A DNA stretch of 64,000 bases from Bianqueaceae bacterium (GTDB lineage: Bacteria; Bacillota; Clostridia; Lachnospirales; Bianqueaceae), in NCBI GenBank assembly GCA_045631245.1, contig JAZQUJ010000157.1, forward strand, positions 1,207 through 65,206, written 5' to 3'. Below the pieces are notes generated by a model. The model had not been told where the DNA came from, made no database searches, and was given only the letters and a program-made list of their open reading frames with translations. The position numbers and the translations under genes were made by a program. This document shows positions 45,536 through 63,502 of this stretch, one piece after another; the first letter of the stretch is position 1, and each line of letters starts with the position of its first letter.

Positions 45536-45548
45536 TTTTGGTATAAGA

Positions 45549-45591: not shown

Positions 45592-45595
45592 GAGG

Positions 45596-49128: not shown

Positions 49129-50789
49129 TGCAAATTGAAAATATTACCCTCAGAACAAAGCGAATGATCGACGACCTTAAGACCATCTGCGCCAACTTCG
49201 GCTTGGGTGGCTCTCCCGGCGAGTATAAGATCATCACGCAGGTGTTCCTGTATAAATACCTCAGTGACAAATTTCTCTATGAAGCAAAGAAAGCAGAGCC
49301 TACGCTTGCCAATGCAGAAAACATCGAGGAAGCGCTGTCTGCCATGCCGGATGATCAGTACGAAATGCTCGGCTATATGCTTGGCGGCAGTACGGCCAAG
49401 TTGAAAAAAACACACTATATTTCCTATCTGTTCAACCATCAGAATGATGAAACCATGCGTAAAGCAGACGGCAACATTTATCTCTTCCATGAGCTATTTG
49501 ATGATACGCTGGTGGATATCGCCAACCACAACCTTGATATTTTCTCGGTACAGACCGGTGGCGAAGAGAAGATTCGTCTGTTCGATCCGATTTCTCAGTA
49601 TGTCATTGAGAGCGTTAAGAAGCCTCCGTTCTGCCGCGCCATCATCAATAAACTGGTGGAGTTCAGCTTTGCCGATGTGTTTGAACAGAAGTATGATTTC
49701 TTTGCACAGATTTTCGAGTATCTGATCAAGGACTACAACAAGGACTTCGGTAAGTACGCCGAATACTATACCCCACACGCCATCGCAAACATTATCGCCC
49801 GTATTATGGTACAGGGCGATGTTAGCAATGTGTCCGTCTATGACCCCGCAGCCGGTTCCGGCACACTGGTATTGGCTCTGGCACACCAGATCGGTGAGGA
49901 TAACTGTACCATTTTCACGCAAGATATCTCTGCCAAATCCAACGAGTTCCTGCGCCTGAATCTGATTCTCAATAACCTTGTCCACTCTCTGGGCAATGTG
50001 GTGCATGATGATACGCTGATTGCGCCCCGCCACCTGAATGCCAAGAAAAACAGACTGGCACAGTTTGACTATATTGTCAGCAATCCGCCCTTCAACATGG
50101 ATTTCAGCGATAATCAACCGGAGCTGGCAAGTGATAAGCACAAGGAGCGCTTCTTCGCCGGTGCGCCCAGCATTCCGAAAAAGGACAAGGATGGCATGGC
50201 AATTTACCAGCTGTTCATCCAGCACATTCTGTACTCCCTTGCACCCAAGGGCAAAGCCGCTATCGTTGTACCCACCGGTTTTTTGACTGCCGGATCGGGC
50301 ATCCCCAAAAAGATCCGCGAGTATTTGGTAAAAAACCGGATGCTGCGTGGTGTGGTTTCCATGCCCTCCAATATCTTTGCTACCACCGGCACCAATGTTT
50401 CCATCCTGTTCCTTGACCGCGAAAACACCGATGGCAATGTGATTTTGATGGATGCGTCTAAACTTGGCACAAAGGTAAAACTGGACGGCAAGAATCAGCG
50501 CACCGTATTAAGTCCAGAAGAAATCGCGAAAATCATCGATACTTTCAACGCTGGAAAAGCCGAGGATGATTTCTGTGTGGCGGTCAGTTATTTGGATATC
50601 GAGGCAAAGAAGCTTTCCTTCTCCGCCGGTCAGTATTTCGAGGTCAAGATTGAATATGTGGAGCTGACACCTAAAGAATTTGCTGATAAGATGAACGGTT
50701 TTGCTTCCCAATTAGATGAACTGTTCGCAGAAAGCCGTCGTTTGGAGGATGAGATTAAGGTACAGTTGGGGCGGGTGAAATATGAGTAG
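49128..50789 (+). CDS. hsdM: type I restriction-modification N6-adenine methyltransferase subunit
   Basis: TAATG overlap with hsdR. Motif I DPAAGSGT and motif IV SNPPFN. Confidence 0.9.
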   Translation: MQIENITLRTKRMIDDLKTICANFGLGGSPGEYKIITQVFLYKYLSDKFLYEAKKAEPTLANAENIEEALSAMPDDQYEMLGYMLGGSTAKLKKTHYISYLFNHQNDETMRKADGNIYLFHELFDDTLVDIANHNLDIFSVQTGGEEKIRLFDPISQYVIESVKKPPFCRAIINKLVEFSFADVFEQKYDFFAQIFEYLIKDYNKDFGKYAEYYTPHAIANIIARIMVQGDVSNVSVYDPAAGSGTLVLALAHQIGEDNCTIFTQDISAKSNEFLRLNLILNNLVHSLGNVVHDDTLIAPRHLNAKKNRLAQFDYIVSNPPFNMDFSDNQPELASDKHKERFFAGAPSIPKKDKDGMAIYQLFIQHILYSLAPKGKAAIVVPTGFLTAGSGIPKKIREYLVKNRMLRGVVSMPSNIFATTGTNVSILFLDRENTDGNVILMDASKLGTKVKLDGKNQRTVLSPEEIAKIIDTFNAGKAEDDFCVAVSYLDIEAKKLSFSAGQYFEVKIEYVELTPKEFADKMNGFASQLDELFAESRRLEDEIKVQLGRVKYE

Positions 50790-51969
50790 ATATACAGCAA
50801 CACCTATTCGTGAAATTGGAACTGTTGTAACTGGAAAAACTCCCTCGACGTCTGAAAAGCACTACTATAATGGCGAATATATGTTTATTACGCCAGTTGA
50901 ATTACATGATGGATATAATGTTGCTTGTTCAGAAAAGACTCTTACTGAAGCTGGTTTGAAGAGCATATCGTCAAATTCTATTTGTGGCACAAGCGTGCTT
51001 GTTGGTTGCATTGGATGGGATATGGGAAATGTTGCAATGTGCCATAAAAAGTGTGCAACAAATCAACAAATAAACGCCATTACTAAATTTAAACCGCAGT
51101 ATAATCCGTATTACGTATACTACTGGTTATCTCAGAAAAAAGAATATTTGTTTTCTATAGCATCAGTAACAAGAACACCGATACTAAGCAAAGGGACTTT
51201 CGAAGAGGTCATCATTCCGATACCATCAAAGGATATACAGGATTCAGTTGTAGATGTCTTGAAACCATTTGATGAGAGAATTGTAATTAACAAGCGTATC
51301 TGCGCCGAACTGGAAGCTATGGCAAAAACGCTATATGACTACTGGTTTACGCAGTTTGATTTCCCGAATGCGGATGGGAAACCCTATCGTTCTTCCGGAG
51401 GCGAAATGGTCTGGAATGACCAACTCAAGCGCGAAATCCCGAAGGGGTGGGAAGTAGATATCATTGGAAATATCCTGTCAAAAATTCCAAATACAACACG
51501 AATTCAAACAAGTGAATACTTGAGTGATGGTAATATTCCTGTCATTGATCAAAGCGCAGATTATATTGCCGGGTATACAAACGAAACAGATGCTTTGTTG
51601 TCATCGCCTACGGGTTATGTTGTCTTTGGAGATCATACCCGTATTGTAAAATATATTCGTTTCCCGTTTGCGCGTGGAGCAGATGGAACACAAATCCTGA
51701 AATCCAACACGCTACGCGTCCCTGATGAGCTCTTATATCAAATTGTCCAGAGCGTGGATTTATCCAATTATGGCTATGCAAGGCATTTCAAGTTCTTGAA
51801 GGATACGCTGACAGTAATCCCAGATGAAATGGTTGCAAAAAAGTATGTCGAAATAGTAACGCCAATATTCGATAAGCAAGTTCAATTGACATTTGAAAAT
51901 ATTGAACTCACAAAACTTCGTGATTGGCTGCTTCCCATGCTCATGAACGGACAAGCCACAGTAGAATGA
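50782..51969 (+). CDS. hsdS: type I restriction-modification specificity subunit
   Basis: Overlaps hsdM. Two target-recognition halves are separated by conserved helices (LEAMAKTLYDYWF, LRDWLLPMLMNGQ). Confidence 0.85.
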   Translation: MSRYTATPIREIGTVVTGKTPSTSEKHYYNGEYMFITPVELHDGYNVACSEKTLTEAGLKSISSNSICGTSVLVGCIGWDMGNVAMCHKKCATNQQINAITKFKPQYNPYYVYYWLSQKKEYLFSIASVTRTPILSKGTFEEVIIPIPSKDIQDSVVDVLKPFDERIVINKRICAELEAMAKTLYDYWFTQFDFPNADGKPYRSSGGEMVWNDQLKREIPKGWEVDIIGNILSKIPNTTRIQTSEYLSDGNIPVIDQSADYIAGYTNETDALLSSPTGYVVFGDHTRIVKYIRFPFARGADGTQILKSNTLRVPDELLYQIVQSVDLSNYGYARHFKFLKDTLTVIPDEMVAKKYVEIVTPIFDKQVQLTFENIELTKLRDWLLPMLMNGQATVE

Positions 51970-51980
51970 GGTGATTTAAT

Positions 51981-52718
51981 ATGCAATTACTGAAATTTAT
52001 GGAATCTGTAGATCTTGCAGCTAAGCAGGAAACAGAGCGTGCAAAGCTGCTCTGTTTCTACCATTACAAAGAGGACGGAGAAACTACTTTTACAATGGCG
52101 ACCATTTCTCTTTGGCTGGAAGAATGCAATTTCAGTAAGCCAAATGCATCTCGCCTAAAGGAGCATTTGATCAAAGGAAAAGCCAAATCTTTCCTGGCAT
52201 CAAAGACTGTCAAAGGAGCCATTGAGTTTGTTCCCGCTGTTCTTCAGGCGATGGAGCGTGACTACGGCGCTTTGTGGGCAGATACCGTGACCATTGAGTC
52301 TCATGATGAACTGATTGAGGAAGCAAAGTTCTGCGGAAAACGTGTGTTTCTGACGCGGCTGATTCAGCAAATCAATTTTACATATGGAAACAACTGCTTC
52401 GATGCCTGCGCTGTTCTAATGCGCAGACTTTTTGAAGTGCTTCTGGTCTTAGCGTATCAAAACAAAGGCATTGAAGCGGATATTACCAAACCAGATGGCA
52501 GTCACAAAATGTTGGAAGGTATTGTAAAAGATGCCGTGCAGAATAAGACGCTTGGAGTTCCTGCGAGAATTTCCAAAAACTTCGATGCATTCCGCGAAGT
52601 GGGCAACAATTCTGCGCACAGCATTACTTATACCGCGGGAAAGCTCGATATTGACAATATCGCCCGAGATTACCGCGTCATGCTGGAAGATTTATATAAC
52701 CGAGCCGGTTTGATGTAA
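51981..52718 (+). CDS. DUF4145-like protein
   Basis: C-terminal pattern AVLMRRLFEVLL...FREVGNNSAHS resembles the DUF4145 signature that is often embedded in type I R-M loci. Confidence 0.55.
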   Translation: MQLLKFMESVDLAAKQETERAKLLCFYHYKEDGETTFTMATISLWLEECNFSKPNASRLKEHLIKGKAKSFLASKTVKGAIEFVPAVLQAMERDYGALWADTVTIESHDELIEEAKFCGKRVFLTRLIQQINFTYGNNCFDACAVLMRRLFEVLLVLAYQNKGIEADITKPDGSHKMLEGIVKDAVQNKTLGVPARISKNFDAFREVGNNSAHSITYTAGKLDIDNIARDYRVMLEDLYNRAGLM

Positions 52719-52732
52719 GGAGGATTGAACAA

Positions 52733-53689
52733 GTGAGCGAAGTCTTAAAACTGAAATATAAAGTGGGCAAAATTGAATTTGAGGCAGAAGGACCTGCCGA
52801 TGCAGTTGAGCAGCAGCGCGTCAATTTCATGAACTCAGTGTTGCCCGCTGCTGTTGAAGCGATGGTAAGAACGCAGACCGTTGTCGAGCGGCAGCCGTAT
52901 ATCGAGTCTGCGGCACAACCGGCACTGCTTGAGGCGGGTGTATCTGATGTGCCTATGACGACTCCCCATCAAACAGAAAATGTTTTTTCTCGAACAAGTC
53001 TGTCTTCCTTTTTGAAGAAATACGGAGCGCTTAGTGAACAAGATTTCACTTTGTTTGCTGCATTTTTTGATGAACAGAAAAACGGGAAAAAGTCTTTTTC
53101 GATTGACGATGTGAAACGTTATTATGCGGAAGCACGACGAACGATGCCTAAAAATCCGAGCATGTCAACATTTCGGCTTGCAGAAAAGGGATACATTATG
53201 GATGCCCCTAAGCCTGAAGATGTGAAAAACGGGAATTACTATATGCTAACCACCGATGGCATTGCGTATATCGAATCTTATGTTCCAAAAGAGGATTTGG
53301 GTGAAAAGAAGCCTCGTGCTAAAGCGAAAAAATCTGTGCCGAAGATTTCCGAAGCTTATGCATCTATTAACGCTGACGATCTAAATACTAAGAATTATCC
53401 AGCAGTTAAGTCTCTATCAGGAGCCAAAGAACAGGTCATCATGGCAATGTATATTGTTGTCAATGAAGGAAAAGGAGAATGGTTTACTGTTGAGGATGTT
53501 ATCCATTTGCTTGTCAATGTTTTTGAAGTACCCGCAAATACAGATATGGTAAATGGGGTATTCAAGAGAAACAAGAGTATGTTTGCGACAGAAAAAGATC
53601 CTGCTAATCCTAAGGCGTTTCGCAAAAAACTTCTCTCTGGCGCCAAGGATTTTGCTGTGGGGATCATTGAAAATAGAAAGGCAGAATAA
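52733..53689 (+). CDS. hypothetical protein (318 aa)
   Basis: GTG start follows AGGAGG. No motif recognised. The central linker is K-rich. Confidence 0.6.
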   Translation: MSEVLKLKYKVGKIEFEAEGPADAVEQQRVNFMNSVLPAAVEAMVRTQTVVERQPYIESAAQPALLEAGVSDVPMTTPHQTENVFSRTSLSSFLKKYGALSEQDFTLFAAFFDEQKNGKKSFSIDDVKRYYAEARRTMPKNPSMSTFRLAEKGYIMDAPKPEDVKNGNYYMLTTDGIAYIESYVPKEDLGEKKPRAKAKKSVPKISEAYASINADDLNTKNYPAVKSLSGAKEQVIMAMYIVVNEGKGEWFTVEDVIHLLVNVFEVPANTDMVNGVFKRNKSMFATEKDPANPKAFRKKLLSGAKDFAVGIIENRKAE

Positions 53690-53753: not shown

Positions 53754-56700
53754 ATGTTACACCACGGTCTTTATGAACAAGTAATCAATAGTCAGCTGAG
53801 CAGCGAGCTTTCGGAGATTTCTGAAGCCCGCAAGGCTGTTGCGCCCATCGATAAGGCAGAAGCATCCAAGGTGCTGGCGCAGTATTTGGCTGACGTGGTT
53901 CAAAAGGGCCTGGATAACGTGGTTGATAATGGCGGGGATATCTCTGCCCAACTCGCTCTGACCAATCAGATTGTTGACCTTATTCAAAACACTACAAGAG
54001 AAGCTGACTTTGCCATGCTGGGTGTTGACCAGCGCGCAGCGCAGCTTCTTGCTCTTTTGAGAGAAACAGATCCTCGACTTGCGGTGGGTAAAACGGCGGC
54101 AGATTTGAGTCGTCCGGAAACCTCTATTGCACAAAGTTCTTTATTTACTGGCGCAATTCATGAACCCCAAATGTACACTGAGCTGAAAAAGGAAATCGTA
54201 TCCGCAGATCGTATTGACATGCTAGTTTCCTTTATCAAGTGGAGTGGTCTGCGTCTCCTGATGGACGAGCTTCGCGAGTTTACCATGAACGGTGGCGAGT
54301 TGCGTATCATCACCACTTCCTATATGGGTGCTACTGATGTGAAAGCAATTGAAGAGCTGCGACAGCTGCCCAATACCACCATCAAAGTAAGTTACGATAC
54401 TAAGCGCACCCGCCTTCACGCGAAGACCTATGTTTTCTGCCGTAACACTGGCTTCACTACTGCCTATGTTGGCTCTTCCAACCTTTCCAATGCCGCTATT
54501 TCCAGTGGATTGGAGTGGAACGTGAAGGTTACAAAGAAGGACCTTCCTGAGACCATCGATAAGATCGCGGCGACCTTCGAAAGTTACTGGAATTCCAATG
54601 AATTTGAGTATTACTCTGAGGATCAAAAGGAGCGCTTAGCACGCGCCTTGAAGGCGGAGAAATACATAGACGGCAACAATCCTGAAGTCTACACCATGGA
54701 TATCATGCCATATTCCTATCAGCAGGAGATTCTGGATAAGCTGGAAGCAGAACGCAAGGTGCGTGGCTATAACCGCAACCTGGTTGTTGCGGCAACCGGT
54801 ACCGGTAAAACGGTTATCTCTGCACTGGATTATAAACGCTTCCGTAAGCAAAATCCGGGAAAGCCCTGTCGTTTGCTGTTTGTGGCACATCGTGAAGAGA
54901 TTCTGAAACAAAGCTTATACACTTTCCGTGCGGTTTTGAAGGATGCAAACTTTGGTGAGATGTTTGTCGGCAACTACAAGCCAGACAGCATTGAAAATCT
55001 CTTTATTTCTATTCAGACCTTTAACTCCCAGGATTTTACCGCAAAGACGGCGCCTGATTTCTATGACTATATCATCGTGGACGAGTTCCATCATGCTGCG
55101 GCACCTACATACCAGAAGCTCTTGGCGTATTATCAGCCGCAGATTCTGCTCGGATTGACGGCCACCCCGGAACGTATGGACGGTAAGAGCATTCTGCCGT
55201 ACTTCAACAATCGTATTGCGGCGGAGATTCGTTTGCCTGAAGCTATTGATCGTAAGCTGTTGTGCCCGTTCCAGTATTTCGGCGTTACCGATACTGTTGA
55301 TCTGGATACGCTCAAATGGAGTGCTGGAGGTTACGACAAAGGTGAGCTGACTAAGGTTTACACATTCAGCGGCGCAATGGCCAACCGTCGTGCTGACCTT
55401 GTCGTGAGTTCTTTGTTGAAATATGTGACCGACATCAACGATGTTAAGGGTCTCGGCTTCTGTGTCTCCATTGAGCATGCGGAGTTTATGTGTCGCTATT
55501 TCAATGAGCACAATATTCCATCTATGTTCCTGACCGGACATTCTCCTGATGAGGAAAGAAAAAATGCCAAGCAGCGTTTGGTTGCGGGCGAAGTACGCTT
55601 TATCTTTGTTGTAGATATCTATAACGAGGGCGTTGATATTCCTGAGGTCAACACCGTTCTTTTCCTGCGTCCAACAGAGTCCCTGACCATATTCTTGCAG
55701 CAGTTAGGCCGTGGCTTGCGTTTGGCTGAAGATAAAGAATGCCTAACTGTTTTGGACTTTATCGGTCAGGCAAATAAAAAATATAACTTTGAAGATAAGT
55801 TTGCGGCGCTGCTGAGTAACACCACGCGCAGTGTAACCCGCGAAATTAAGGATGGTTTTGTTTCTGTGCCGAAGGGTTGCTATATTCAGCTGGAAAAGAA
55901 AGCTGCTAAATATATTCTTGATAACATCCGAGCTTCCTATGGTAATACGGCAGGCTTGGTATCCCGTGTTGCCACCTTTGAAGAGGATAGCGGATTAGAG
56001 CTTACTCTGAAGAATTTCCTGGATTATTATCATCTGGACACGAGAGCAATCTATAAGTTTACATCATTCTCTCGTCTTTGTGCCAGAGCAGATGTCATCA
56101 AGGATTTCGAGGAACCGCTAGAAGAAACGATCACCAAGGCCTTTGCACGTCTTGCTGTGATCGACTCCAGACGTTGGATATCCTTCTTACTAGATATTCT
56201 TCCTCGCCTGGATAATGTAAATTTTGCCGCTTTGAGCGATGTTGAAAAGCGCATGCTTCAGATGTTCTATATTACTGTATGGGGTAAGAGTGCGGGTTCC
56301 TGGGATAACGAAGAGGTACTGGACAACCTCTATGCGCTGTCCGATAGCACGACACTGATGGGTGAGCTAATAAGTCTGCTTCAATATCGGTATGAACAGA
56401 TTGATTTTATTGATGAACCTGTTGACTTGGGTTTTGATTGTCCGTTGGATCTACATTGCACATATACCCGTGATCAGTTGTTGGTAGCTATGGATTTTAT
56501 GAAGCCGGCTACTGTGCGTGAGGGCGTGAAGTGGTTACCGGATAAGCAAATTGATGTACTGTTTGTGACGCTGAATAAATCTGATAAGGACTACTCTCCG
56601 ACCACTATGTATCATGACTACTCAATCAATGAAAACTTGTTCCATTGGCAGAGTCAGAGTACAACCAATGATACCGGTTCTGTTGGACAGCGTTATATTC

Positions 56701-56909
56701 ATCATAAAGAACGTGGTAGCAAAGTTCTGTTTTTTGTCCGTGAGTATAAAGCGGATCGGATCACGAATGGTGCTGAAGCCTACACCTATCTGGGAACAGC
56801 AAACTACGTGCAGCATCAGGGATTTAGACCGATGAATATCACATGGCGCTTGGATCGACCGATTCCGGCGAAGTTTTTGAAAAAGACAAATAAGTTGGTG
56901 GTGGGATAA
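53754..56909 (+). CDS. PLD-nuclease / SF2 helicase / DUF3427 fusion protein
   Basis: ATG at 53754 follows AAAGGAG. HKD-like motif RLHAKTYVF...VGSSNLS. Helicase motifs AATGTGKT, VDEFHH, LTATPER and QQLGRGLR. DUF3427-like tail (FHWQSQSTT...NITWRLDRPIP). Confidence 0.85.
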   Translation: MLHHGLYEQVINSQLSSELSEISEARKAVAPIDKAEASKVLAQYLADVVQKGLDNVVDNGGDISAQLALTNQIVDLIQNTTREADFAMLGVDQRAAQLLALLRETDPRLAVGKTAADLSRPETSIAQSSLFTGAIHEPQMYTELKKEIVSADRIDMLVSFIKWSGLRLLMDELREFTMNGGELRIITTSYMGATDVKAIEELRQLPNTTIKVSYDTKRTRLHAKTYVFCRNTGFTTAYVGSSNLSNAAISSGLEWNVKVTKKDLPETIDKIAATFESYWNSNEFEYYSEDQKERLARALKAEKYIDGNNPEVYTMDIMPYSYQQEILDKLEAERKVRGYNRNLVVAATGTGKTVISALDYKRFRKQNPGKPCRLLFVAHREEILKQSLYTFRAVLKDANFGEMFVGNYKPDSIENLFISIQTFNSQDFTAKTAPDFYDYIIVDEFHHAAAPTYQKLLAYYQPQILLGLTATPERMDGKSILPYFNNRIAAEIRLPEAIDRKLLCPFQYFGVTDTVDLDTLKWSAGGYDKGELTKVYTFSGAMANRRADLVVSSLLKYVTDINDVKGLGFCVSIEHAEFMCRYFNEHNIPSMFLTGHSPDEERKNAKQRLVAGEVRFIFVVDIYNEGVDIPEVNTVLFLRPTESLTIFLQQLGRGLRLAEDKECLTVLDFIGQANKKYNFEDKFAALLSNTTRSVTREIKDGFVSVPKGCYIQLEKKAAKYILDNIRASYGNTAGLVSRVATFEEDSGLELTLKNFLDYYHLDTRAIYKFTSFSRLCARADVIKDFEEPLEETITKAFARLAVIDSRRWISFLLDILPRLDNVNFAALSDVEKRMLQMFYITVWGKSAGSWDNEEVLDNLYALSDSTTLMGELISLLQYRYEQIDFIDEPVDLGFDCPLDLHCTYTRDQLLVAMDFMKPATVREGVKWLPDKQIDVLFVTLNKSDKDYSPTTMYHDYSINENLFHWQSQSTTNDTGSVGQRYIHHKERGSKVLFFVREYKADRITNGAEAYTYLGTANYVQHQGFRPMNITWRLDRPIPAKFLKKTNKLVVG

Positions 56910-58168
56910 TGGAAAACAAAGTGATTAATGAATTCATTAAAGAATTTTACGACGAAGTAGATTTATACGAAAAAGTTAAAAGAAATGTACATAAGTTGCT
57001 CGAAACAAAATTAAATGATTCGGGTGTTATGGCATTAGTTACTTCAAGAGTAAAAGATCCTGGAAGGTTAAAAGAGAAACTCATTGATAGAAATAATGAG
57101 AAAAAATACAAAAACAAGGAAGATATATATTTTGACATTGTCGATCTTATTGGACTACGAGTGGCGCTATATTTCCCCAATGATGTTGGACGAGTAGAGT
57201 CTTTGATAAAGAATAGCTTTTCTGTAACAAAGATTAAAACTTTCCCCGAAGATAGAAAAGGCAATGATGTATATACCAATAGGTTTGAAGGGTACAGTGC
57301 AAGGCATTACCGTATTGAGTATGAGCATGAGGGGAGATTATACAAGGTAGAGATACAAGTGGCTTCTTTGCTTATGCATGCTTGGGCGGAGGTGGAGCAT
57401 GATTTAGCGTATAAACAAAAGAAAGGTAAAGTTTCTTTTGATGAATATGAGGCATTGGACGAAATTAATGGTTTGGTTATAGCTGGAGAAATATCTTTGC
57501 AACGCCTACAGCGTCTTTCTGAATTAAGAATGGCCTCTGAAAAAGAAACGTTTTTAAATCATTATCAACTCGCAGATTACATTTATAAATTTGCTGAGAA
57601 AACTGTGCCTGACAGCGAAATGGTTCTTGGTGATGTCGAGACACTGTTTAAAGTATTACAGAGGCAGAACAGATTAACAAAAAAGAAAGTCGATAATGAT
57701 TTGGGGAAGCTCCAACTTAGTTCATCAAGTGGCGCTATTGCTGATCAAATAATGGATCTATACTCTTTGGATAATCGCAAAGAAAGTATTGAAATTATAA
57801 AAATTAGAGCAAGTAAAGATCCGTTGAACGAAAATCATATCAATGAGGTTTGTATTGGAAAATTTCTTACAGAGTGGATTAAGTTGGAACGCATGTTGGA
57901 AGATTTTGCATGCCGTTTTGGTTTTTCAAATTTACCCAAAAACAGAGATGCAATGTCAAGACTGTTAAGATGTATAGATGTGCCCAACAGCACAAGGGAA
58001 GTGTATTGGCATTTGAAAAAAATAAGAAACCTGTTAGTGCATGGAGTGGAAATACCAGAAGATCGTGAGCTGTTACTATATGTGGAGGAAATAAAGGACG
58101 TGAAAAAGGAAATTGAATCTTTTTTTGATAGCATAACAGGAGATGAAAACAGTGGCCAAAAGTTTTAA
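56909..58168 (+). CDS. RelA/SpoT-homologue (small alarmone-synthetase/toxSAS-like) nucleotide pyrophosphokinase with C-terminal HEPN-like region
   Basis: TAATG overlap with the helicase gene. Synthetase-fold motifs SRVKDPGRLKEKL, DLIGLRVALYF, GYSARHY and VEIQVASLLMHAWAEVEHDLAYK. C-terminal KKIRNLLVHG carries an R-x4-H motif. Confidence 0.8.
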   Translation: MENKVINEFIKEFYDEVDLYEKVKRNVHKLLETKLNDSGVMALVTSRVKDPGRLKEKLIDRNNEKKYKNKEDIYFDIVDLIGLRVALYFPNDVGRVESLIKNSFSVTKIKTFPEDRKGNDVYTNRFEGYSARHYRIEYEHEGRLYKVEIQVASLLMHAWAEVEHDLAYKQKKGKVSFDEYEALDEINGLVIAGEISLQRLQRLSELRMASEKETFLNHYQLADYIYKFAEKTVPDSEMVLGDVETLFKVLQRQNRLTKKKVDNDLGKLQLSSSSGAIADQIMDLYSLDNRKESIEIIKIRASKDPLNENHINEVCIGKFLTEWIKLERMLEDFACRFGFSNLPKNRDAMSRLLRCIDVPNSTREVYWHLKKIRNLLVHGVEIPEDRELLLYVEEIKDVKKEIESFFDSITGDENSGQKF

Positions 58169-58991
58169 TATGTCCAGCTTTAAATCTCAACTTAGACAAG
58201 CTCAGCGAAAAGCTGAACGAGATATGAAAAGTGAGATTAACAAGGCAACAAGAAAATTTGAGAGTGAAATGAACCGCGAGCTACGGAAATATAATACGAA
58301 AGTGCAACATAATCGAAATACAATCGCACGTGAGCTAAGTAGATTGCAATCTCACACGACAGTAAAAAGTGCTTACGCCATTTCGCTTAGTACCATGCAT
58401 CGGTATTATACTGATATTGATAGTATATATGGGGATTGTGTCGTAACTCCGCAGCAAGAGCATATTTTTGATTTGGTAGAACAAGAGCAGGTTAATAGTC
58501 TAATTACTGCTAACGCTATTCAAAATGATCAGTTTTCAGACGAAAATATTGAGGATATTGAAATAGGAAATAAACTTTTGAATGTATCTGAGGACCTCAA
58601 TAATCGTTGGCGAGGGGCTGTTTTTGCGATGAGTCCGCAAAATCCTGATGCAGCACGACATTTCTGCACCAGTGCGCGAGAGATATTCACAGAATTTATT
58701 GAGTTAAAGGCACCAGATTCTAACGTGTTTGTCTTTAATCCGGACTGCGAAAAGACGGACAGAGGCAATGCTACAAGAAGAGAAAAAATCAAATATATGA
58801 TGAGGAATATAGATATTCATAGCAGCATTATTGATTTTGCTGAGGCTGATATCACCAATATTCTTGAATTGTTCCATGTTTTGAGTGATGGAACTCATGG
58901 AGCTGCAGGTCGATATGAGTTTCAGAAATTGGTTCAAGTGAAAAAGCGCGTTGAGCAAGGGATAAACTTTTTGTGTGAAATTTCTGCATGA
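58143..58991 (+). CDS. hypothetical protein (282 aa; basic coiled-coil N-terminus, helical C-terminal domain)
   Basis: Overlaps the RSH gene by 26 nt. An alternative ATG at 58170 lies 1 nt after the RSH stop. No motif recognised. Confidence 0.65.
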   Translation: MKTVAKSFNMSSFKSQLRQAQRKAERDMKSEINKATRKFESEMNRELRKYNTKVQHNRNTIARELSRLQSHTTVKSAYAISLSTMHRYYTDIDSIYGDCVVTPQQEHIFDLVEQEQVNSLITANAIQNDQFSDENIEDIEIGNKLLNVSEDLNNRWRGAVFAMSPQNPDAARHFCTSAREIFTEFIELKAPDSNVFVFNPDCEKTDRGNATRREKIKYMMRNIDIHSSIIDFAEADITNILELFHVLSDGTHGAAGRYEFQKLVQVKKRVEQGINFLCEISA

Positions 58992-59043
58992 TTATCAAAA
59001 ACTCTATTTGCAATTCAATAATAAGTACGAATATTGGATTAAC

Positions 59044-59082
59044 AAGAAGTGGTTATCTGGATTTACCCAATAACCGCTTCTT
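59044..59082 (+). terminator. hairpin ending the R-M/helicase/RSH transcription unit
   Basis: AAGAAGTGGTTAT-loop-ATAACCGCTTCTT with a weak T-run. Confidence 0.45.
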
Positions 59083-59098
59083 CCTATTTTATAGAATT

Positions 59099-59272
59099 CT
59101 ATTCCTCCTCAAATTCGGTGAAATCAGAAAAGTCTTCCCTATCAGCCAAATCACAAAATTTGTGGAAGATGTAATTATCATATTCGATCAATAAATAGAA
59201 TATTTCTTCAGCAAGGATAGCATACTCGTCAAGCACGTTTGCAAGGGATGATATGAGTATTCCGGCTCCCAT
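59099..59272 (-). CDS. possible small acidic protein
   Basis: The ORF ends ...DLADREDFSDFTEFEEE. No convincing RBS and the start is uncertain. Confidence 0.25.
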   Translation of the reverse strand: MGAGILISSLANVLDEYAILAEEIFYLLIEYDNYIFHKFCDLADREDFSDFTEFEEE

Positions 59273-59598
59273 TGAGCTAGTAGTCCAGACTTTGAGAGCC
59301 ACCATTCCGGTGTTTGGAGCCAGCATTCCGGTAACAGAAAATCGCTATTCCGGTCATGAGAAAACATGATTCTGTTCCGGTGGAAATCATTTCATAGATT
59401 CCTTTATAAGTTCGTATGCCATTCGGTGTAAATTGTAGTCCATATTCAATTCGATCACAGCAGTAGCCATCGTCTTCTTTGTGCCCACGGCGCATCCTGT
59501 ATCTTCCGTCTATATCGTGTATACGCCATCTTAAATATGCCTGACGAATTGACGTGAATCCGAAAAGTAAGTACAATAAGCACGGGGGGAGTGATATT

Positions 59599-60096
59599 AT
59601 GAGTAGCATTAAGACATATACTGGCGTGATGTTCGATCCGGTGCATCCGGAATTGGAACGGATCGATATTTTGGATATTGCGCACGCGCTGAGTATGCTG
59701 TGCCGGGCGAATGGGCATTTTAGGAGCTTTTATTCGGTGGGCCAGCACTGTATCAATTGCGCCCGGGAGGCGAAGGCGAGAGGATATTCGGAGCGGGTGC
59801 AGCTGGCGTGTTTGCTGCACGATGCCAGCGAGGCGTATCTGTCGGATGTGACCCGGCCGGTGAAACAGGAACTGCCGAAGTATCTGGAGATTGAGGAACC
59901 GCTGCAGGAGGCGATCTGGCGGAAGTATTTGGGGGCGGAATTGACGGAGGAAGAGAAGGTTCGGGTGTTTGAGATTGATGATGCGATGCTTTACTATGAG
60001 TTTAAGGCGTTGATGGGGATCCGATTGTCGGGGACTATGGAGAGTTATAGGGTGTGTGTGGATAGGAAGGAATATTTGAAAAAATTGAAGAAGTAA
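59599..60096 (+). CDS. HD-domain phosphohydrolase (chimeric 3' end)
   Basis: ATG follows GGGGGAG. HD motif LACLLHDASEAYLSD. The last 18 or so codons derive from the alkylation-repair gene 3' remnant (ESYRV...KKLKK). Confidence 0.7.
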   Translation: MSSIKTYTGVMFDPVHPELERIDILDIAHALSMLCRANGHFRSFYSVGQHCINCAREAKARGYSERVQLACLLHDASEAYLSDVTRPVKQELPKYLEIEEPLQEAIWRKYLGAELTEEEKVRVFEIDDAMLYYEFKALMGIRLSGTMESYRVCVDRKEYLKKLKK

Positions 60097-60250
60097 TTTT
60101 GGTATAAGAAATGCAGTTATTGGAGATTGTAGGTTTTCAATAACTGCAAATTTTTACGAAAATTTGACATTTATGTTAAGTTGGGGGGAATGTTTGGTTG
60201 AAGAAGGTGAGCGAAAGCAGTATAATAATTTATAAGAAAAGTCCGTCCCC
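60039..60250 (+). repeat. third copy of the alkylation-repair 3' remnant, terminator and downstream module (direct repeat of 45480-45720)
   Basis: Shared strings: GGAGAGTTATAG, TATTTGAAAAAATTGAAGAAGTAATTTTGGTATAAGAAA, ACATTTATGTTAAGTT and GTCCGTCCC. Confidence 0.8.
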
Positions 60251-60251
60251 T

Positions 60252-60886
60252 GCTGTATGAGGTAAGAGTGCAGATTCCTGAAATGATGAAGAGGTCTGGA
60301 CAACCTCTATGCGCTGTCGGATAGCACGATACTGATAGGTGAGTTAATTCATCTACTCCAATATCGTTATGAACAGATTGACTTTATTGATGAGCCTGGT
60401 GATTTGGGGTTTGATTGCCCGTTGGATCTGTATTGCACATATACCCGTGATCAGCTGCTGGTAGCTATGGACTTCATGAAGCCGGCTACTGTGCGTGAAG
60501 GCGTAAAATGGTTGCCGGACAAGCAGATTGATGTTCTGTTCGTGACGCTGAACAAATCTGATAAGGATTACTCTCCGACAACTATGTATCACGACTACTC
60601 GATCAATGAATGCTTATTTCACTGGCAGAGTCAGAGTACAACCAATGATACCGGTTCTGTTGGACAGCGCTATATTCATCATAAAGAACGTGGTAGTAAG
60701 GTTCTGTTCTTTGTCCGCGAGTTTAAGGCGGATCGTATCACAAATGGTGCTGGAGCCTATACCTACCTCGGAACAGCAAACTACGTTCAGCATCAGGGAT
60801 CTAGACCGATGAATCTCACATGGCGCTTGGATCGACCGATTCCGGCGCGGTTTTTGAAGAAGACAAATAAATTGGTTGTGGGGTGA
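60252..60886 (+). pseudogene. decayed duplicate of the 3' end (DUF3427 region) of the helicase gene
   Basis: Aligns with 56275-56909 at roughly 90 percent identity by eye. A 1-nt deletion lies near 60285. Only the last 160 codons remain open. Confidence 0.85.
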
Positions 60887-61030
60887 GGTTAAAAGTAATC
60901 GTTGTCTCGAGAGCTTATTTATTTGTTTATTGCAGGTTATAATAAAAACTTGACAAATATGTTATAATTATACTACACAAGAGAATATTATATATGAATG
61001 AGTTTGTGTGTAGATTGTGAGGAAAAGAAA

Positions 61031-61465
61031 ATGTATAGAGCATTAAGTGTTGCTCGTTATATCATCGAAAGATGTCATTCAAAGAATCGTAGTATTAGTA
61101 ACTTGAAATTACAAAAAATATTGTATTTTGTTCAGGCGGAATTTTTGGTGTCAAGAGGGCACCCCTGTTTTGCTGAGCAAATAGAAGCGTGGGATTTTGG
61201 GCCAGTAGTGCCAGAGGTATATCAAAAATATAAAATTTTTGGAAGTTCCAATATTCCTGTTTTTGGAAGACCTACTAATGCTGTGGTTATTCGTAATGAT
61301 GATCAAGAAATAATTAATGATATTGTTGATGAGTGTGCCAGATATTCTGCATCTGCACTAGTTGATATTACGCATCACCAATTGCCTTGGCTTGATGCAT
61401 ATGTTCCAGGATATAATAATGTGATTTCTCAAAGTAGTATAAAAAATTATTTTACCGAGGGATAA
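61031..61465 (+). CDS. Panacea/DUF4065 (SocA/GepA-like) domain protein, candidate antitoxin
   Basis: ATG follows GAGGAA. LSVARYIIERC...SNLKLQKILYFVQAEFL...EAWDFGPVVPEVY pattern. Confidence 0.65.
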   Translation: MYRALSVARYIIERCHSKNRSISNLKLQKILYFVQAEFLVSRGHPCFAEQIEAWDFGPVVPEVYQKYKIFGSSNIPVFGRPTNAVVIRNDDQEIINDIVDECARYSASALVDITHHQLPWLDAYVPGYNNVISQSSIKNYFTEG

Positions 61466-61468
61466 AGC

Positions 61469-62464
61469 ATGCCAAATCTGAAAATTAACATAAACAAGAC
61501 GACAGGAAATGTACAATTTAATTTTGATGATAAAGACCTTACAGAAGAAATGAATGAAAAAGTTCAGGCATTATGCAAGGCTCTTTTAACGGATAATAAT
61601 AATTTTAAAAAGGATGCGGTTTTTCAAGATATTTATAAATATATAAGCAACTATGACCGAATCTTATATGCTCCTATCAGTAATATGATTTATGCATGCT
61701 ATAATGATCATACGGCAGAAGAAGCAACTAATATTATGGGAACGATTAACTCCAATATCATTGCTGTAGTAAATTATTCTCAGGGTAAAGAAGTTAATGA
61801 GTTTATTACAAAAGCTCGGGGTGAAAATAAGAAACACTTGCAGGATACTAAAAAAGTAATTCTGAAAATTTGGGATCATATAAATTTGGCACATCAACAA
61901 TATAGCGCTTTGAAACAGAGTGATGCTGAATATGAAGAAAAGTTCAATAAAAAAATGCGTCCGATTAAGGATGAGCTTTCGAAAGACCTAAGTCAGCAGT
62001 TGCTTACTATGGTAAGTATTTTCACAGCACTTGCATTTTTGATTTTTGGTGGTATTAGTTCACTTGACAATATTTTTGCAAACCAGGGAATATCAGTATT
62101 AAAAATTATGATTGTGGGTTCTATATGGGGATTATGCATCTTGAATTTGATTTTTGTTTTTTTGTTCTGTGTTAGCAAGATGACGAAATTAAAAATTGTA
62201 TCTACAAGTGAGCCCAATGCTACAATATTTCAAAAATATCCTATCGTATGGTGGGGAAATCTTGTGATTGTTTCCATAATGCTATTGAGTATGTGGGGAT
62301 ATTACATAACAAAGAGAAATATTCATACATGGTTTGATCAGATCTGTTTTAAAAATCCGGTGTTGGCAACGATATTAGGTACAGGATTAATTCTAATAAT
62401 TATCATCGCCATCACTTGTAAACTAATTAAAGCAACAAAACGTACAAATGGGGCGGATGAATAG
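61469..62464 (+). CDS. hypothetical protein: soluble N-terminal half plus 4 C-terminal TM helices (candidate toxin partner)
   Basis: 3-nt gap after the Panacea-like gene and a GAGGGA RBS. TM segments lie from about aa 185 to 320. Confidence 0.65.
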   Translation: MPNLKININKTTGNVQFNFDDKDLTEEMNEKVQALCKALLTDNNNFKKDAVFQDIYKYISNYDRILYAPISNMIYACYNDHTAEEATNIMGTINSNIIAVVNYSQGKEVNEFITKARGENKKHLQDTKKVILKIWDHINLAHQQYSALKQSDAEYEEKFNKKMRPIKDELSKDLSQQLLTMVSIFTALAFLIFGGISSLDNIFANQGISVLKIMIVGSIWGLCILNLIFVFLFCVSKMTKLKIVSTSEPNATIFQKYPIVWWGNLVIVSIMLLSMWGYYITKRNIHTWFDQICFKNPVLATILGTGLILIIIIAITCKLIKATKRTNGADE

Positions 62465-62971
62465 AGGACTCGATAGGGTTCTCTTTTTATTTACGCAGGA
62501 AGAGTTTTGTGTTCTACCATTAATCAATATAGGTTTGGTAGCCTAAAATCATATTTGCGTTATTTTTCATGGTGAAGATCAAAAGCTTTATTAACTTCAT
62601 CTTCAAGCAAAAGGATAGTCATTTTTCTTGTTTTATTTTTTAATAAATTTTCTTCTTCTTTTTACCAGTTATTTGTACTAAATTATCAATGGTCAATTTT
62701 GATGGATGCCGTTGTGTATTACCAGAGATGCCAACATGACGCGAGGAACTGCAGAAGAGCGTTGAAGGGCCAGCGGCTTTCTTCTTACATTTCTGGAACA
62801 TTATTTTGGCTCCAACTCTAACCGAAATACTCGGTCAGGGCTGGAGCCATCGTCATCTTTGCGCCTACGGCGCGGGGGATCTTTGGCTGTGGAGTGGATC
62901 TGTGGTCTAAATATGGAGGATGAATTGACGGGAGCCGAAAAGGGCAGTACAATAGGTATGGGGGTGATAGT

Positions 62972-63502
62972 ATGAGTAGTATTAAGACTTTTACCGGCGT
63001 GATGTTCGATCCGGTGCATCCGGAAGCGGAACGGATCGATATTTTGGATATTGCGCATGCGCTGAGTATGCTGTGCCGGGCGAATGGGCATTTTAGAAGT
63101 TTTTATTCGGTGGGCCAGCACTGTATCAATTGCGCCCGGGAGGCGAAGGCGAGAGGATATTCGGAGCGGGTGCAGCTGGCGTGTTTGCTGCACGATGCCA
63201 GCGAGGCGTATCTGTCGGATGTGACGCGGCCGGTGAAACAGGAACTGCCAAAGTATCTGGAGATTGAGGAACCGCTGCAGGAGGCGATCTGGCGGAAGTA
63301 TTTGGGGGCGGAATTGACGGAGGAAGAGAAGGTTCGGGTGTTTGAGGTTGATGATGCGATGCTTTACTATGAGTTTAAGGTGTTGATGGATACCCGATTG
63401 GCAGAGGAGGAGCCGGAACTGAAGAGTGAGCCGGAGTTTGGGTTTCGGGGATTTGAGGAAGTAGAGGAAGGGTTTTTGAGGGTGTTTCATTCTTATATTT
63501 GA
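62972..63502 (+). CDS. HD-domain phosphohydrolase (intact paralogue)
   Basis: Near-identical to 59599-60020 and then keeps its own C-terminus. LLHDASEAYLSD motif. Confidence 0.75.
   Translation: MSSIKTFTGVMFDPVHPEAERIDILDIAHALSMLCRANGHFRSFYSVGQHCINCAREAKARGYSERVQLACLLHDASEAYLSDVTRPVKQELPKYLEIEEPLQEAIWRKYLGAELTEEEKVRVFEVDDAMLYYEFKVLMDTRLAEEEPELKSEPEFGFRGFEEVEEGFLRVFHSYI

Follow-up and report, generated by a model that had tools for sequence, protein, structure and literature searches.

Stacked gene-end relics in a chromosomal defence island probably record allele turnover next to a SauUSI-type restriction gene

The window, which is the whole stretch of 64,000 nucleotides analysed, contains an ordinary defence island, yet an instructive record of island turnover. 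The best explanation, which we hold to be likely, joins three elements: stacked hotspot alleles, independent modules downstream of the helicase gene, and a helicase which works autonomously. The segment would be part of a chromosomal defence hotspot of an uncultured gut Clostridia bacterium, bounded to the left by an AlkD-like gene and to the right by an HD-phosphohydrolase gene, where two or three hotspot "alleles" were stacked in tandem via recombination at conserved genes, and each stacking event would have given rise to one displaced gene-end relic. The original prediction, which started from a second copy of the helicase 3' end followed by different genes, is partly supported: the repeat and the genes around it were confirmed, and its functional interpretation was not. 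It lacked the probable helicase start at 53754, the other gene-end relics and the stretch of unrelated DNA between the relic and the Panacea cassette.

Organization of the defence island

The island shows the following features outside the helicase copies and the genes that follow them:

41050..41733, + strand: AlkD-like DNA-alkylation-repair gene, conserved left flank of the hotspot (Pfam DNA_alkylation, E 1e-15)
41830..45178, no strand assigned: island segment 1, an AbiZ-like/DUF6161 gene (41830-43113) and small ORFs (PADLOC AbiZ, E 5.5e-27; Pfam DUF6161)
45373..45720, + strand: A2, displaced AlkD-like 3'-end relic and native downstream intergenic region with terminator hairpin and TATAAT (repeats)
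45786..46025, + strand: 79-aa small helix-turn-helix (XRE/HTH_26-like) gene, which heads the Type I R-M/helicase array (ORF, sequence)
within 46129..53689, + strand: Type I R-M genes hsdR (46129-49128), hsdM (49116-50789) and hsdS (50782-51969) (Pfam HSDR_N/SWI2_SNF2, N6_Mtase and Methylase_S)
51981-52718, + strand: DUF4145 protein (Pfam DUF4145)
52733-53689, + strand: 318-aa protein without an assigned family (ORF)
59451..60027, + strand: B1, additional HD-phosphohydrolase gene copy, including the promoter region (89% identical to 62831-63400)
60039..60249, + strand: A3, second displaced AlkD-like tail and native intergenic region (repeats; terminator 60112-60148, promoter-like 60198-60226)
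62803..63502, + strand: B2, intact gene of an HD-superfamily phosphohydrolase (62972-63502) and the region upstream of it, conserved right anchor (homology)

The repeats, their divergence, their joints and a related locus are direct observations. The island contains at least four gene-end relics, namely an AlkD-like tail at 45.4 kb, another at 60.0 kb, a truncated HD-hydrolase gene and the helicase relic. The last 168 nt of the AlkD-like gene (41567-41734) constitute repeat copy A1, which is 82% identical to A2; A2 is also 78-80% identical to 60039-60186 and to positions 443-774 of the related locus L097. Island segment 1 is inserted directly after the AlkD-like stop codon, where A1 departs from A2, A3 and L097. 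The GC content of the island is lower than the core value, and that of segment 1 is 0.32-0.37 versus about 0.5 in the core. The motif GTCCGTCCC is over-represented and sits at two segment boundaries: A2 ends at it, at 45712, and A3 ends at its copy in 60241-60249. DNA of the 79-aa gene recurs upstream of the helicase in about 20 other loci, and its putative HTH was assigned by inspecting the sequence and by comparison with an HTH_26 gene at the equivalent place in locus L003.

B1 breaks off at codon ~143 and continues in frame into the AlkD-like tail, which gives a chimeric ORF (59599-60096) whose protein alignment switches to ...ESYRVCVDRKEYLKKLKK and the stop, with the joint at 60027/60039. 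Its identity to 62831-63400 reaches 96% within the coding part, and dS between B1 and B2 is just 0.096. B2 shows the GC of the core, over 7,000 relatives of its HD protein are annotated as phosphohydrolase or YfbR-like, and its homologues in L097-L099 are located among different defence genes.

Locus L097, from a related MAG in another assembly, contains the same AlkD-like gene (at its start) and HD gene, different defence cargo and several relics of the same elements. In L098, an HD-gene 3' relic is located 4 kb past the intact gene.

If the source is a metagenome assembly, as it may be, the assembly could in principle have joined alleles of different strains into a chimeric tandem stack. The joint between B1 and the AlkD-like tail lies outside any shared repeat, which counters this.

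The helicase gene

53754..56909, + strand: helicase gene, for a Type IV restriction enzyme of the SauUSI family that contains a PLD nuclease; repeat copy H1 consists of the final 635 nt of the gene (56275-56909)

The "DUF3427 helicase" is predicted to be a complete single-chain Type IV restriction enzyme of the SauUSI family with its own PLD nuclease, because the mREase_IV model of PADLOC matches it over its full length (E 1.8e-227) and the SauUSI structure (PDB 7clg) matches it at E 4e-83 and shares with it the HxK, Walker A, DExH and motif VI sequences as well as pocket residues. The ORF probably starts at 53754, giving 1051 aa, the length of all its relatives. SauUSI is an autonomous single polypeptide, and the intact helicase alone would be a modification-dependent restriction enzyme.

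The helicase relic

60253..60886, + strand: H2, 3' relic of the helicase that corresponds to codons ~841-1051 and derives from another SauUSI-type allele (self-BLAST; DUF3427, E 1.5e-23 on ORF 60404-60886)

The copy of the last 635 nt of the helicase gene, described by the original prediction as frameshifted, about 90 percent identical and ending with the stop codon, was recovered in all these respects. Self-BLAST aligns 56275-56905 with 60253-60882 (E = 0); the alignment has 631 columns and one gap, at an identity of 89.1%. The two copies are similar as far as their stop codons (TAA at 56907-56909 and TGA at 60884-60886), and the flanks beyond them are unalignable. H2 lacks the first ~840 codons, and its 5' edge is disabled by two TGG-to-TGA nonsense changes in the first ~33 nt and a 1-nt deletion near 60284; its final 200 codons are in frame and free of stops. 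Between H1 and H2, dS is 0.55 and dN/dS is 0.066; therefore, the copies diverged as functional genes and the relic derives from a different allele. Since dS is 0.55 for this pair and 0.096 for B1 and B2, the two repeat pairs differ in age.

The helicase relic of L097 belongs to the H2 lineage (93.8% nucleotide identity) and has the identical end at the stop codon, but it is located elsewhere, with a different gene next to it. An in-situ tandem duplication of the unit from helicase to HD gene, followed by divergence, decay of one helicase and replacement of cargo, is hardly credible as the origin of H2. It would account for the colinear order H1-cargo-B1/H2-cargo-B2 and for the B1/AlkD-tail joint, which resembles a duplication joint, but the divergence of the H and B pairs is unequal, that of the helicases is nearly all synonymous, which is unexpected in a redundant decaying copy, the H2 lineage is also present in another genome, and the cargo of the two units is unrelated.

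It is also extremely unlikely that H2 is a silent alternative target-recognition-domain cassette, whose gene conversion into the helicase changes specificity as in pilS or hsdS-type variation. H2 covers the DUF3427/TRD region with its pocket residues intact along the stop-free codons, the L097 relic is likewise an intact ORF, of 139 codons, and the identical runs, of up to 47 nt, would permit RecA pairing. However, L097 shows no intact helicase within 10 kb, the changes N941H, S948F and Y1010S in its relic hit residues invariant in 156 helicases, the 5' ends of the relics vary between genomes (codon 841, codon 913 and, elsewhere, codons 399-850), the repeats are in direct orientation, which favours deletion, and no recombinase is nearby.

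A site-specific or trans-mobilised element that targets gene 3' ends (AlkD-like, helicase), bringing a replacement end plus cargo and leaving an attL/attR-type duplication, is unlikely. Both the AlkD-like gene and the helicase of the window show the order of intact gene, cargo, own 3' relic and old downstream DNA, as does the HD gene of L098; the boundaries are exactly at stop codons, and the over-represented motif lies at two of the segment boundaries. Against it, domains of integrases, transposases or recombinases are absent from all ORFs tested between 41.7 and 63.7 kb. Instead of a short identical core, the duplications extend over 168 and 631 nt with an even identity of 82-89%, the relic 5' ends differ among genomes, and the L097 relic matches the H2 lineage from end to end, without a crossover.

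Genes downstream of the two helicase ends

56909..58168, + strand: RSH protein (Pfam RelA_SpoT, E 8.7e-16), whose ATG overlaps the helicase TAA (TAATG)
58143..58991, + strand: 282-aa protein with a C-terminal pP_pnuc_1 (predicted nuclease) domain (Pfam pP_pnuc_1, E 3e-35)
60933..62537, + strand: portable PanA-PanT cassette (DNA homology to L093-L096 covers exactly this block)
60960-60968, + strand: extended -10 element TGtTATAAT of the PanA cassette (promoter read from the sequence)
61031-61465, + strand: PanA (SocA_Panacea), 144 aa (Pfam/NCBIfam, E 7e-19)
61469-62464, + strand: 331-aa membrane protein, presumed toxin (hydropathy)
62463-62484, + strand: terminator of the PanA-PanT cassette (sequence)

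These are the genes named in the original prediction: an RSH gene and a 282-aa gene after the intact helicase and, 144 nt after the relic, a Panacea/DUF4065-like gene and a 331-aa protein with four transmembrane segments. The RSH protein contains a RelQ/RelP-like small alarmone synthetase domain (aa ~9-175) and a helical C-terminal domain of ~240 aa with a family-conserved RNxxxH (HEPN-like) motif, where R373, N374 and H378 are at least 90% conserved. Among PDB structures it matches RelQ/RelP at E ~1e-12 and CapRel at just E 0.39. Full-length alignment gathers 379 family clusters, so that this architecture can be regarded, by sequence, as a large family in its own right, which appears uncharacterised save for a weak match to the PADLOC candidate PDC-S33. 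The 282-aa gene overlaps the RSH 3' end by 26 nt, and full-length relatives of its protein are solitary, on plasmids and with no helicase. No conserved antitoxin partner of RSH was found. The contexts in which the RSH/282-aa pairing was sampled were all on plasmids (one RSH context and three pP_pnuc contexts). Both genes are probably co-transcribed with the helicase, given the overlapping TAATG, and they are not conserved partners of it.

The overlaps between the helicase stop and the RSH start, and between the RSH and 282-aa genes, are operon-like and would also suit a functional link.

Between the relic and the Panacea cassette there are ~45-55 nt of unrelated DNA. The Panacea gene most likely starts at 61031, exactly 144 nt past the relic stop, which gives 144 aa, like its relatives. 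In the 331-aa protein, the N-terminal half is soluble, and hydropathy shows about four hydrophobic segments at 174-325. Four unrelated contexts, without helicase, retain the pair together with its upstream element as one block, and the pair is, judging from these alignments, a portable two-gene toxin-antitoxin cassette in which the membrane protein would be the toxin. Experiments have validated the combination of PanA and membrane toxins as a toxin-antitoxin class (PMC8832971).

Neighbours of the helicase in related loci

The original prediction took the relic as a footprint of cassette swapping and suggested that DUF3427 helicases may be paired with interchangeable two-gene effectors. In this model, the helicases would be sensor/motor components, and the effectors would be swapped at the stop codon. 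A genuine scar of DNA turnover beside the helicase is indeed present, but the effector reading is very unlikely. Two helicase-end copies do carry different gene pairs behind them, RSH is start/stop-coupled to the helicase, and many different genes abut the helicase stop, with 54 of 118 same-strand first genes starting at most 15 nt away. However, the helicase already has a nuclease and matches an autonomous enzyme end to end, and homologues of RSH, pP_pnuc, PanA or the 4-TM protein were found within 10 kb of none of 172 related helicase 3' ends. The first downstream gene belongs to 58 families in 139 loci, and 88 distinct downstream pairs are found among 133 loci. The commonest neighbours are Wadjet JetA/JetB, NUDIX, M20 peptidase, HAD+TIR, SF1 helicase and SbcD, a mixture of other complete, unrelated systems and housekeeping genes. 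The genes upstream of the helicase vary equally, the PanA/PanT cassette occurs with its own upstream element and no helicase, and the dead helicase fragment in L097 precedes yet another gene. The expected clustering of breakpoints at the stop codon was observed, homology ending within 20 nt of it in 91% of 6,430 locus pairs, but the boundary at the start-codon edge is as sharp. The downstream genes are largely unrelated, and the relic largely corresponds to a decayed second island with independent toxin-antitoxin cargo. The exception is NUDIX, which follows the helicase in 34 of 139 loci; therefore, the helicase is not wholly free of preferred neighbours.

In the stacked-allele explanation, which we prefer, H2 would be the right-hand end that survives from a second SauUSI-type restriction gene, functional in the past, whose 5' part, with whatever lay upstream, was lost in a deletion or replacement with its left edge just past the native AlkD-downstream region. 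The RSH/282-aa pair and the pair of PanA and the membrane protein would be independent modules of abortive-infection or toxin-antitoxin type, both occupying the slot between helicase and HD gene, one in each of two alleles. We infer the order and mechanism of the stacking events; recombination may have proceeded by homologous insertion on one side, by Campbell-type integration of a DNA circle, or through an element mobilised in trans.

Comparison with known systems

Orphan toxin/immunity cassettes occur downstream of cdiA and rhs genes, and the island resembles them in showing a 5'-truncated end of a large gene, followed by other downstream genes, a few kb past the intact gene. CDI/Rhs systems exchange the C-terminal toxin domain of the large protein together with its immunity gene, whereas in this island homology runs up to the stop codon, the variable part lies outside the helicase C-terminus and the downstream cassettes are autonomous.

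The helicase shares with SauUSI the identical one-chain domain order (PLD nuclease, SF2 ATPase, coupler and DUF3427/SRA-like TRD), HxK...GSSN, Walker A, DExH, motif VI and four of the five named 5mC-pocket positions. It differs in that the sequence kinship is distant, with patchy identity, the N-terminus is ~100 aa longer, Met829 of SauUSI, which inserts into the duplex, is replaced by Glu, and the gene sits behind a Type I R-M operon.

As in PanA-PanT (Kurata et al., 2022, PMC8832971), the Panacea gene is directly upstream of a gene for a membrane-spanning protein, in a tight two-gene unit conserved across unrelated contexts. The validated membrane PanTs are described as small peptides, while the presumed toxin here is large (331 aa), with a soluble N-terminal domain of ~170 aa and no Pfam family.

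The RSH protein has a RelA_SpoT synthetase domain of SAS size, with RelQ/RelP as nearest structures (PMC11782079, PMC9712102), but its C-terminal domain with RNxxxH is absent from RelQ/RelP, and, among the toxSAS (CapRel, FaRel) of the same works, it is barely similar to CapRel.

The island is like the core-gene-flanked hotspots cDHS1/2 of Pseudomonas aeruginosa (PMC10250203) and those of E. coli (PMC10121019): variable defence systems are located between conserved host genes, GC is under that of the core genome, there is no obvious mobile-element machinery, and the content at the same site differs in a relative. One of these works lists the way hotspots are built as an open question and proposes flank-mediated homologous transfer, which would leave no scars. 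Here, in contrast, partial copies of flanking and internal conserved genes are stacked as physical scars of exchange.

Duplicated helicase end and helicase relics

The window shows two ends of the same helicase gene, each followed by different genes. The features of this region are:

41050-41733: AlkD-like gene
45373-45536: displaced copy of the AlkD-like gene end (AlkD tail)
53754-56909 (+): SauUSI-type helicase gene, with its repeated end at 56275-56909
56909-58168: RSH, with a RelA_SpoT domain
58143-58991: 282-aa protein with a pP_pnuc_1 domain, a predicted nuclease
59451-60027: truncated copy of an HD-phosphohydrolase gene (HD gene)
60040-60097: second, partial AlkD tail
60253-60886: 5'-truncated, disabled copy of the helicase 3' end (helicase relic)
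60960-60968: extended -10 element (TGtTATAAT) of the PanA cassette, read from the sequence
61031-61465: PanA
61469-62464: 331-aa 4-TM protein, presumed PanT
62463-62484: terminator after the PanA cassette
62803-63502: intact HD gene with its upstream region

In self-BLAST, 56275-56905 matches 60253-60882 (89.1% identity, 631 columns, one gap), and the two copies cease to be alignable at their stop codons (TAA 56907-56909 and TGA 60884-60886). In the relic the first ~840 codons are absent; two nonsense changes and a 1-nt deletion fall within its initial ~33 nt, and its other 200 codons are in frame and stop-free. The original prediction of a roughly 90 percent identical, frameshifted copy of the helicase end, with homology stopping at the stop codon in both copies, is thus confirmed far beyond chance, and the genes it listed downstream are all present: RSH and the 282-aa protein after the intact gene, and the Panacea gene, 144 nt past the relic, and the 331-aa 4-TM protein after the truncated copy.

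The intact and relic ends show a dS of 0.55 and a dN/dS of 0.066, and therefore they diverged as functional genes under purifying selection. The two copies of the HD gene have a dS of only 0.096. Since these dS values are unequal, the two repeat pairs have different histories, and a single-step in-situ tandem duplication was rejected for the same reason.

A related locus, L097, belongs to an independent assembly of a Bacillota MAG (GCA_017441145.1) and carries a 422-nt helicase 3' relic, 93.8% identical to that of the window and with the same stop codon. This relic lies past the HD gene, and an unrelated gene of 262 aa comes after it. Along its full length it has 29 derived sites in common with the window relic, versus 12 sites matching the intact helicase, and the window relic therefore represents a distinct helicase lineage. 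With the L097 relic as third sequence, no switch point of a crossover within the helicase repeat was seen. In L097 (10740-11159) the relic is an intact ORF of 139 codons, starting at an ATG equivalent to window position 60469 and with a purine-rich stretch upstream, and it shows replacements at three positions that are invariant in 156 helicases (N941H, S948F and Y1010S), which are consistent with decay.

Other loci contain 5'-truncated helicases with varied breakpoints, from codon 227 to codon 913. The apparent excess of 3' relics in L097, L111, L118-120, L130, L148, L150, L158 and L175 was obtained with the C-terminus as search query and is no measure of a 3' bias. In three metagenome contigs (L118-L120, ~520-2450), a gene for a large serine recombinase, on the opposite strand, interrupts the helicase at codon 399, which points to the insertion of a mobile element into the helicase gene.

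Organization and proposed origin of the hotspot

The last 168 nt of the AlkD-like gene recur at 45373-45536 (82%) and partly at 60040-60097. Both displaced tails precede the native downstream intergenic region of this gene, which is also conserved in the related MAG. The 578-nt block at 59451-60027, a repeat of the intact HD gene at 62831-63502, includes the promoter and reaches codon ~143; there the truncated copy is joined in frame to an AlkD tail, giving a chimeric ORF. This GC-rich repeat was also considered as a structured RNA and discarded, as the Rfam and tRNA scans were empty and the block is the HD gene. The order of the elements is:

Left part: AlkD-like gene, AbiZ-like segment, AlkD tail with native intergenic region
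Middle: HTH gene, Type I R-M system, DUF4145 gene, 318-aa ORF, helicase, RSH, 282-aa protein
Right part: truncated HD gene fused to AlkD tail with native intergenic region, helicase relic, PanA-PanT, intact HD gene

This order therefore corresponds to a stack of two or three alleles of one hotspot, whose limits are the AlkD-like and HD genes. Relatives of the HD gene number more than 7,000 and its GC content is core-like; the island is GC-poorer (0.32-0.47, versus 0.47-0.56 in the core). L097, the only relative spanning both hotspot flanks, shows the AlkD-like gene, then genes of a Type II R-M system, McrBC-like and DUF3800 genes, and then the HD gene; the same flanking genes thus enclose different defence content in this one relative. 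It also contains relics of the HD upstream region and of the AlkD-downstream region, and L098 has a relic of the HD-gene 3' end 4 kb past its intact HD gene. Scanning of the island ORFs, which took in only part of the very small ones, revealed no recombinase or transposase domain. The DNA of 56000-63600 gave only trivial short matches in phage and plasmid collections, and the small spacer ORFs at 58988-59609 and 62640-62801 gave nothing in Pfam or tblastx.

As the best reading of this stack, we infer turnover by recombination in a defence hotspot flanked by core genes. Foreign alleles would enter through conserved genes that provide homology, their other end being joined illegitimately or through a circular intermediate, and such entry would leave tandem partial duplicates. 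The helicase relic would be the right-hand remnant of an earlier resident helicase, left by a deletion or replacement whose left edge would lie at 60249/60253, directly after the native AlkD-downstream region. The direct repeats that remain share identical stretches as long as 47 nt (helicase) and 125 nt (HD gene), so the locus could still collapse to either single-cargo allele. A strain-chimeric assembly might possibly produce a tandem stack of this kind, but the key joint is outside any shared repeat, and independent assemblies show relics of the same kinds.

It is conceivable, and in our judgement unlikely, that the locus is a caught intermediate of hotspot allele exchange, in which gene ends (the AlkD-like tail, the SauUSI-type 3' end and the HD gene) would have served as homology arms for the insertion of whole or partial foreign alleles, giving a tandem 'merodiploid' resolvable to either cargo. 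Recombination between the helicase repeats would then yield the helicase with PanA/PanT, and recombination between the HD-gene repeats would yield the helicase with RSH and the 282-aa protein. If this is general, the way in which scar-free 'core defence hotspots' come about would be readable from gene-end relics. Core-gene-flanked hotspots, and the proposal that they move by flank homology, are known, and their construction is described as an open question (PMC10250203).

Over-represented 9-mer and other repeats

The 9-mer GTCCGTCCC is present in 8 copies in 64 kb, versus 0.23 expected (~35-fold), at 4688 and 8067 on the minus strand and at 25203, 31650, 32007, 32043, 45712 and 60241 on the plus strand; L097 contains it at 4214 and 10677. 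The extended consensus is (G)AG-GTCCGTCCC-(C/T)T. Copies are found in coding DNA, in different frames and antisense, and in intergenic DNA, with six of the eight on the leading (+) strand. Two native AlkD-downstream segments finish with a copy, and one copy is directly beside the 5' breakpoint of the helicase relic. In 2.5 Mb of other genomes the 9-mer is only about 2-fold enriched. It might be a Chi-like recombination signal of this lineage; an uptake sequence and an operator are the other candidates.

Other repeats are found in the window. A 22-nt unit, AGGTCCGTCCCTTCGACAAAGC, occurs twice, 36 nt apart, at 32007-32064, within the minus-strand ORF 31351-32838, and both copies contain the GTCCGTCCC 9-mer. 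A 99-nt inverted repeat (5036-5134 and 7872-7970, 82% complementary) brackets 2.7 kb with two ORFs, 5245-6894 (-) and 6936-7835 (+), a segment that could be mobile or invertible. Three tandem 60-nt repeats at 26165-26344, in the minus-strand ORF 26124-27347, give a repetitive protein segment.

The helicase as a SauUSI-type enzyme

The PADLOC model mREase_IV PDLC03659 matches the helicase end to end (model positions 13-935 of 945, E 1.8e-227), and the best solved relative is SauUSI of Staphylococcus aureus (PDB 7CLG). SauUSI is a single polypeptide containing a PLD nuclease, an SF2 ATPase, a coupler and an SRA-like target-recognition domain, and it cleaves 5mC/5hmC DNA alone (PMC7913695; PMC3141236). 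The helicase likewise shows all its domains in one polypeptide: an N-terminal PLD-family nuclease (Pfam PLDc_2 and RE_NgoFVII), an SF2 helicase-like ATPase (ResIII and Helicase_C) and a C-terminal DUF3427/SRA-like target-recognition domain (DUF3427 E 7.8e-24). The HxK nuclease motif LHAKTYVF...GSSNLS aligns with FHAKGYIFE...GSSNLT of SauUSI, and the Walker A (ATGTGKT), DExH (DEFHH) and VI (QQLGRGLR) motifs are aligned and conserved between both proteins. In a residue-level alignment, a test at the sequence level only, four of the five named positions of the 5mC pocket are conserved: Y831 of SauUSI is replaced by W, F841 is F, I842 is replaced by V and W868 is W, and at the fifth M829 is replaced by E. 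All close relatives are 1051 aa, so the gene probably starts at 53754 and not at the upstream ATG of a 1118-aa ORF. The helicase is thus a predicted stand-alone SauUSI-type Type IV restriction enzyme, and because it has its own nuclease effector, it would need no downstream partner.

Genomic context of the helicase

Related loci were collected by exact look-up of two relatives (12 loci), from named genomes (80) and from metagenomes (80). None of the 172 loci shows a homologue of RSH, the 282-aa protein, PanA or the 4-TM protein near the helicase 3' end (10-kb flanks). In the 139 loci with 2 kb or more of downstream sequence, the first gene after the helicase belongs to 58 sequence clusters, and 133 loci give 88 different combinations of the first two genes; upstream genes are equally varied (54 clusters in 81 loci). 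The commonest downstream neighbours in the 139 loci are the Wadjet genes JetA/JetB (26 loci), the NUDIX gene described below, an M20 peptidase, a HAD and TIR pair, an SF1 helicase-DUF2726 protein and SbcD. The proposed footprint of cassette swapping is real as a structural phenomenon, but these tabulated genes lend no support to a functional pairing of DUF3427 helicases with interchangeable two-gene effectors.

The DNA homology between the window and its relatives corresponds exactly to the helicase ORF (53739/53750-56912). Clustering of breakpoints at the helicase stop codon is seen, with homology ending 20 nt or less from it in 91% of 6,430 locus pairs, but it is not special to this edge: in 97% of 5,752 pairs, homology ends 20 nt or less from the start codon or inside the gene. 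The helicase is therefore a single-gene module. Its relatives, with 79-94% amino-acid identity, are found in Oscillospiraceae, Faecalibacterium, Lachnospiraceae, Erysipelotrichaceae and even Bacteroidota MAGs.

The Bacteroidota helicases are 79-89% identical at the protein level and come from Parabacteroides, Paludibacteraceae, Bacteroides uniformis and Alistipes MAGs (L019, L070, L073 and L085), which indicates recent inter-phylum transfer of a single gene, or possibly binning errors.

A gene encoding a NUDIX hydrolase (NUDIX_4; 129 aa, or ~130 aa) recurs after the SauUSI-type gene in L001 (13156-13545) and 33 other helicase loci. In 19 of the 139 loci it follows directly, and its ATG often overlaps the SauUSI-type TAA. 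Fifteen more of these loci show a variable gene wedged between both, encoding a BglII-like nuclease, an HD protein, a CoiA/Zn-ribbon protein or small unknown proteins. The NUDIX protein may be a real functional partner of the SauUSI-type gene, for example a sanitiser of modified dNTPs.

In seven loci, including L026 and L047, the helicase is followed by genes encoding a HAD-family hydrolase (~390 aa) and a TIR-domain protein (251 aa), which may be a two-gene defence module. The window also shows a 79-aa XRE/HTH_26-like gene upstream of hsdR (45786-46025), whose DNA recurs upstream of the helicase in ~20 other loci with 68-82% identity, directly before the helicase start in L083, L086 and L092. 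The encoded protein may be a common regulator of these defence arrays.

PanA and the 331-aa membrane protein

The Panacea protein most likely starts at 61031 (144 aa, like its relatives). It shows the Panacea domain PF13274 (DUF4065/SocA; E 7.1e-19) and matches NCBIfam SocA_antitoxin with E 1.9e-23, below the equivalog cut-off of the model. The 331-aa protein has a soluble N-terminal half, without significant match in the Pfam scan, and about four hydrophobic segments. In relatives the pair is always kept, at 67-89% identity, and its contexts in L093-L096 are after a FokI-like R-M system, among acetyltransferases and beside a serine recombinase. DNA homology to these loci extends from 60933/60942 to 62466/62537, begins 45-55 nt past the helicase relic and takes in the extended -10 element. 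A TTGACA-17-TATAAT promoter was discarded because its spacing is wrong and only the extended -10 element is present. The exact-sequence look-up of PanA gave no record. Panacea antitoxins with membrane-disrupting toxins are an experimentally validated class (PMC8832971), and PanA with the 331-aa membrane protein is a portable unit, a predicted PanA-PanT module.

RSH and the 282-aa protein

The synthetase domain of RSH is closest to the RelQ/RelP small alarmone synthetases (SAS; best PDB matches E 7.5e-13), and the CapRel structures 7ztb and 9erv match the RSH family profile only with E 0.3-0.4. The full architecture of RSH, including a helical C-terminal region of ~240 aa, is found in 379 clusters (50% identity, E <= 1e-30), mostly in end-to-end alignments, and R373, N374 and H378 (RNxxxH, a HEPN-type motif) are at least 90% conserved in the family. 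RSH shows only a weak match to the PADLOC candidate PDC-S33. This large, uncharacterised and apparently unnamed family joins a small alarmone synthetase and a HEPN-like domain.

The ATG of RSH overlaps the TAA of the helicase and the 282-aa gene overlaps RSH by 26 nt, so co-transcription with the helicase is likely. The helicase-RSH junction is seen in the window only. Plasmids alone, in a very small sample, were used to assess whether the RSH/282-aa pairing is conserved: full-length relatives of the 282-aa protein on three plasmids are solitary, beside a PaeR7I R-M system, a VapC TA pair or T4SS genes, with no RSH neighbour, and the record of the sole full-length plasmid homologue of RSH contains no 282-aa homologue. 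The exact-sequence look-up of RSH gave no record and the search of viral contigs no match, and Pfam scans of the C-terminal half of RSH, the N-terminal half of the 282-aa protein and the 318-aa ORF gave no significant match. AlphaFold2 single-sequence models (pLDDT 44 for RSH and 43 for the 282-aa protein) were set aside.

Comparison with known systems

These results dispose of an attractive but mistaken idea, the use of swappable effector pairs by DUF3427 helicases: the SauUSI-type helicase is a single-gene module that spreads through gut Bacillota and even Bacteroidota. The history of the hotspot can be read, with coordinates, from stacked gene-end relics, and the window locus and L097 are testable footprints of hotspot assembly, the question left open in PMC10250203. 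The SAS-HEPN-like family, the recurrent SauUSI-NUDIX pair and the over-represented 9-mer may each be worth their own study. By PDB matches, with direct comparison to CapRel, RSH would fall outside the recognised toxSAS subfamilies (FaRel, FaRel2, PhRel and CapRel). The components of the locus are of known kinds, a SauUSI-type Type IV enzyme, a PanA-PanT module and a defence hotspot, and beside them stand a putative, uncharacterised SAS-HEPN-like protein and a predicted nuclease.
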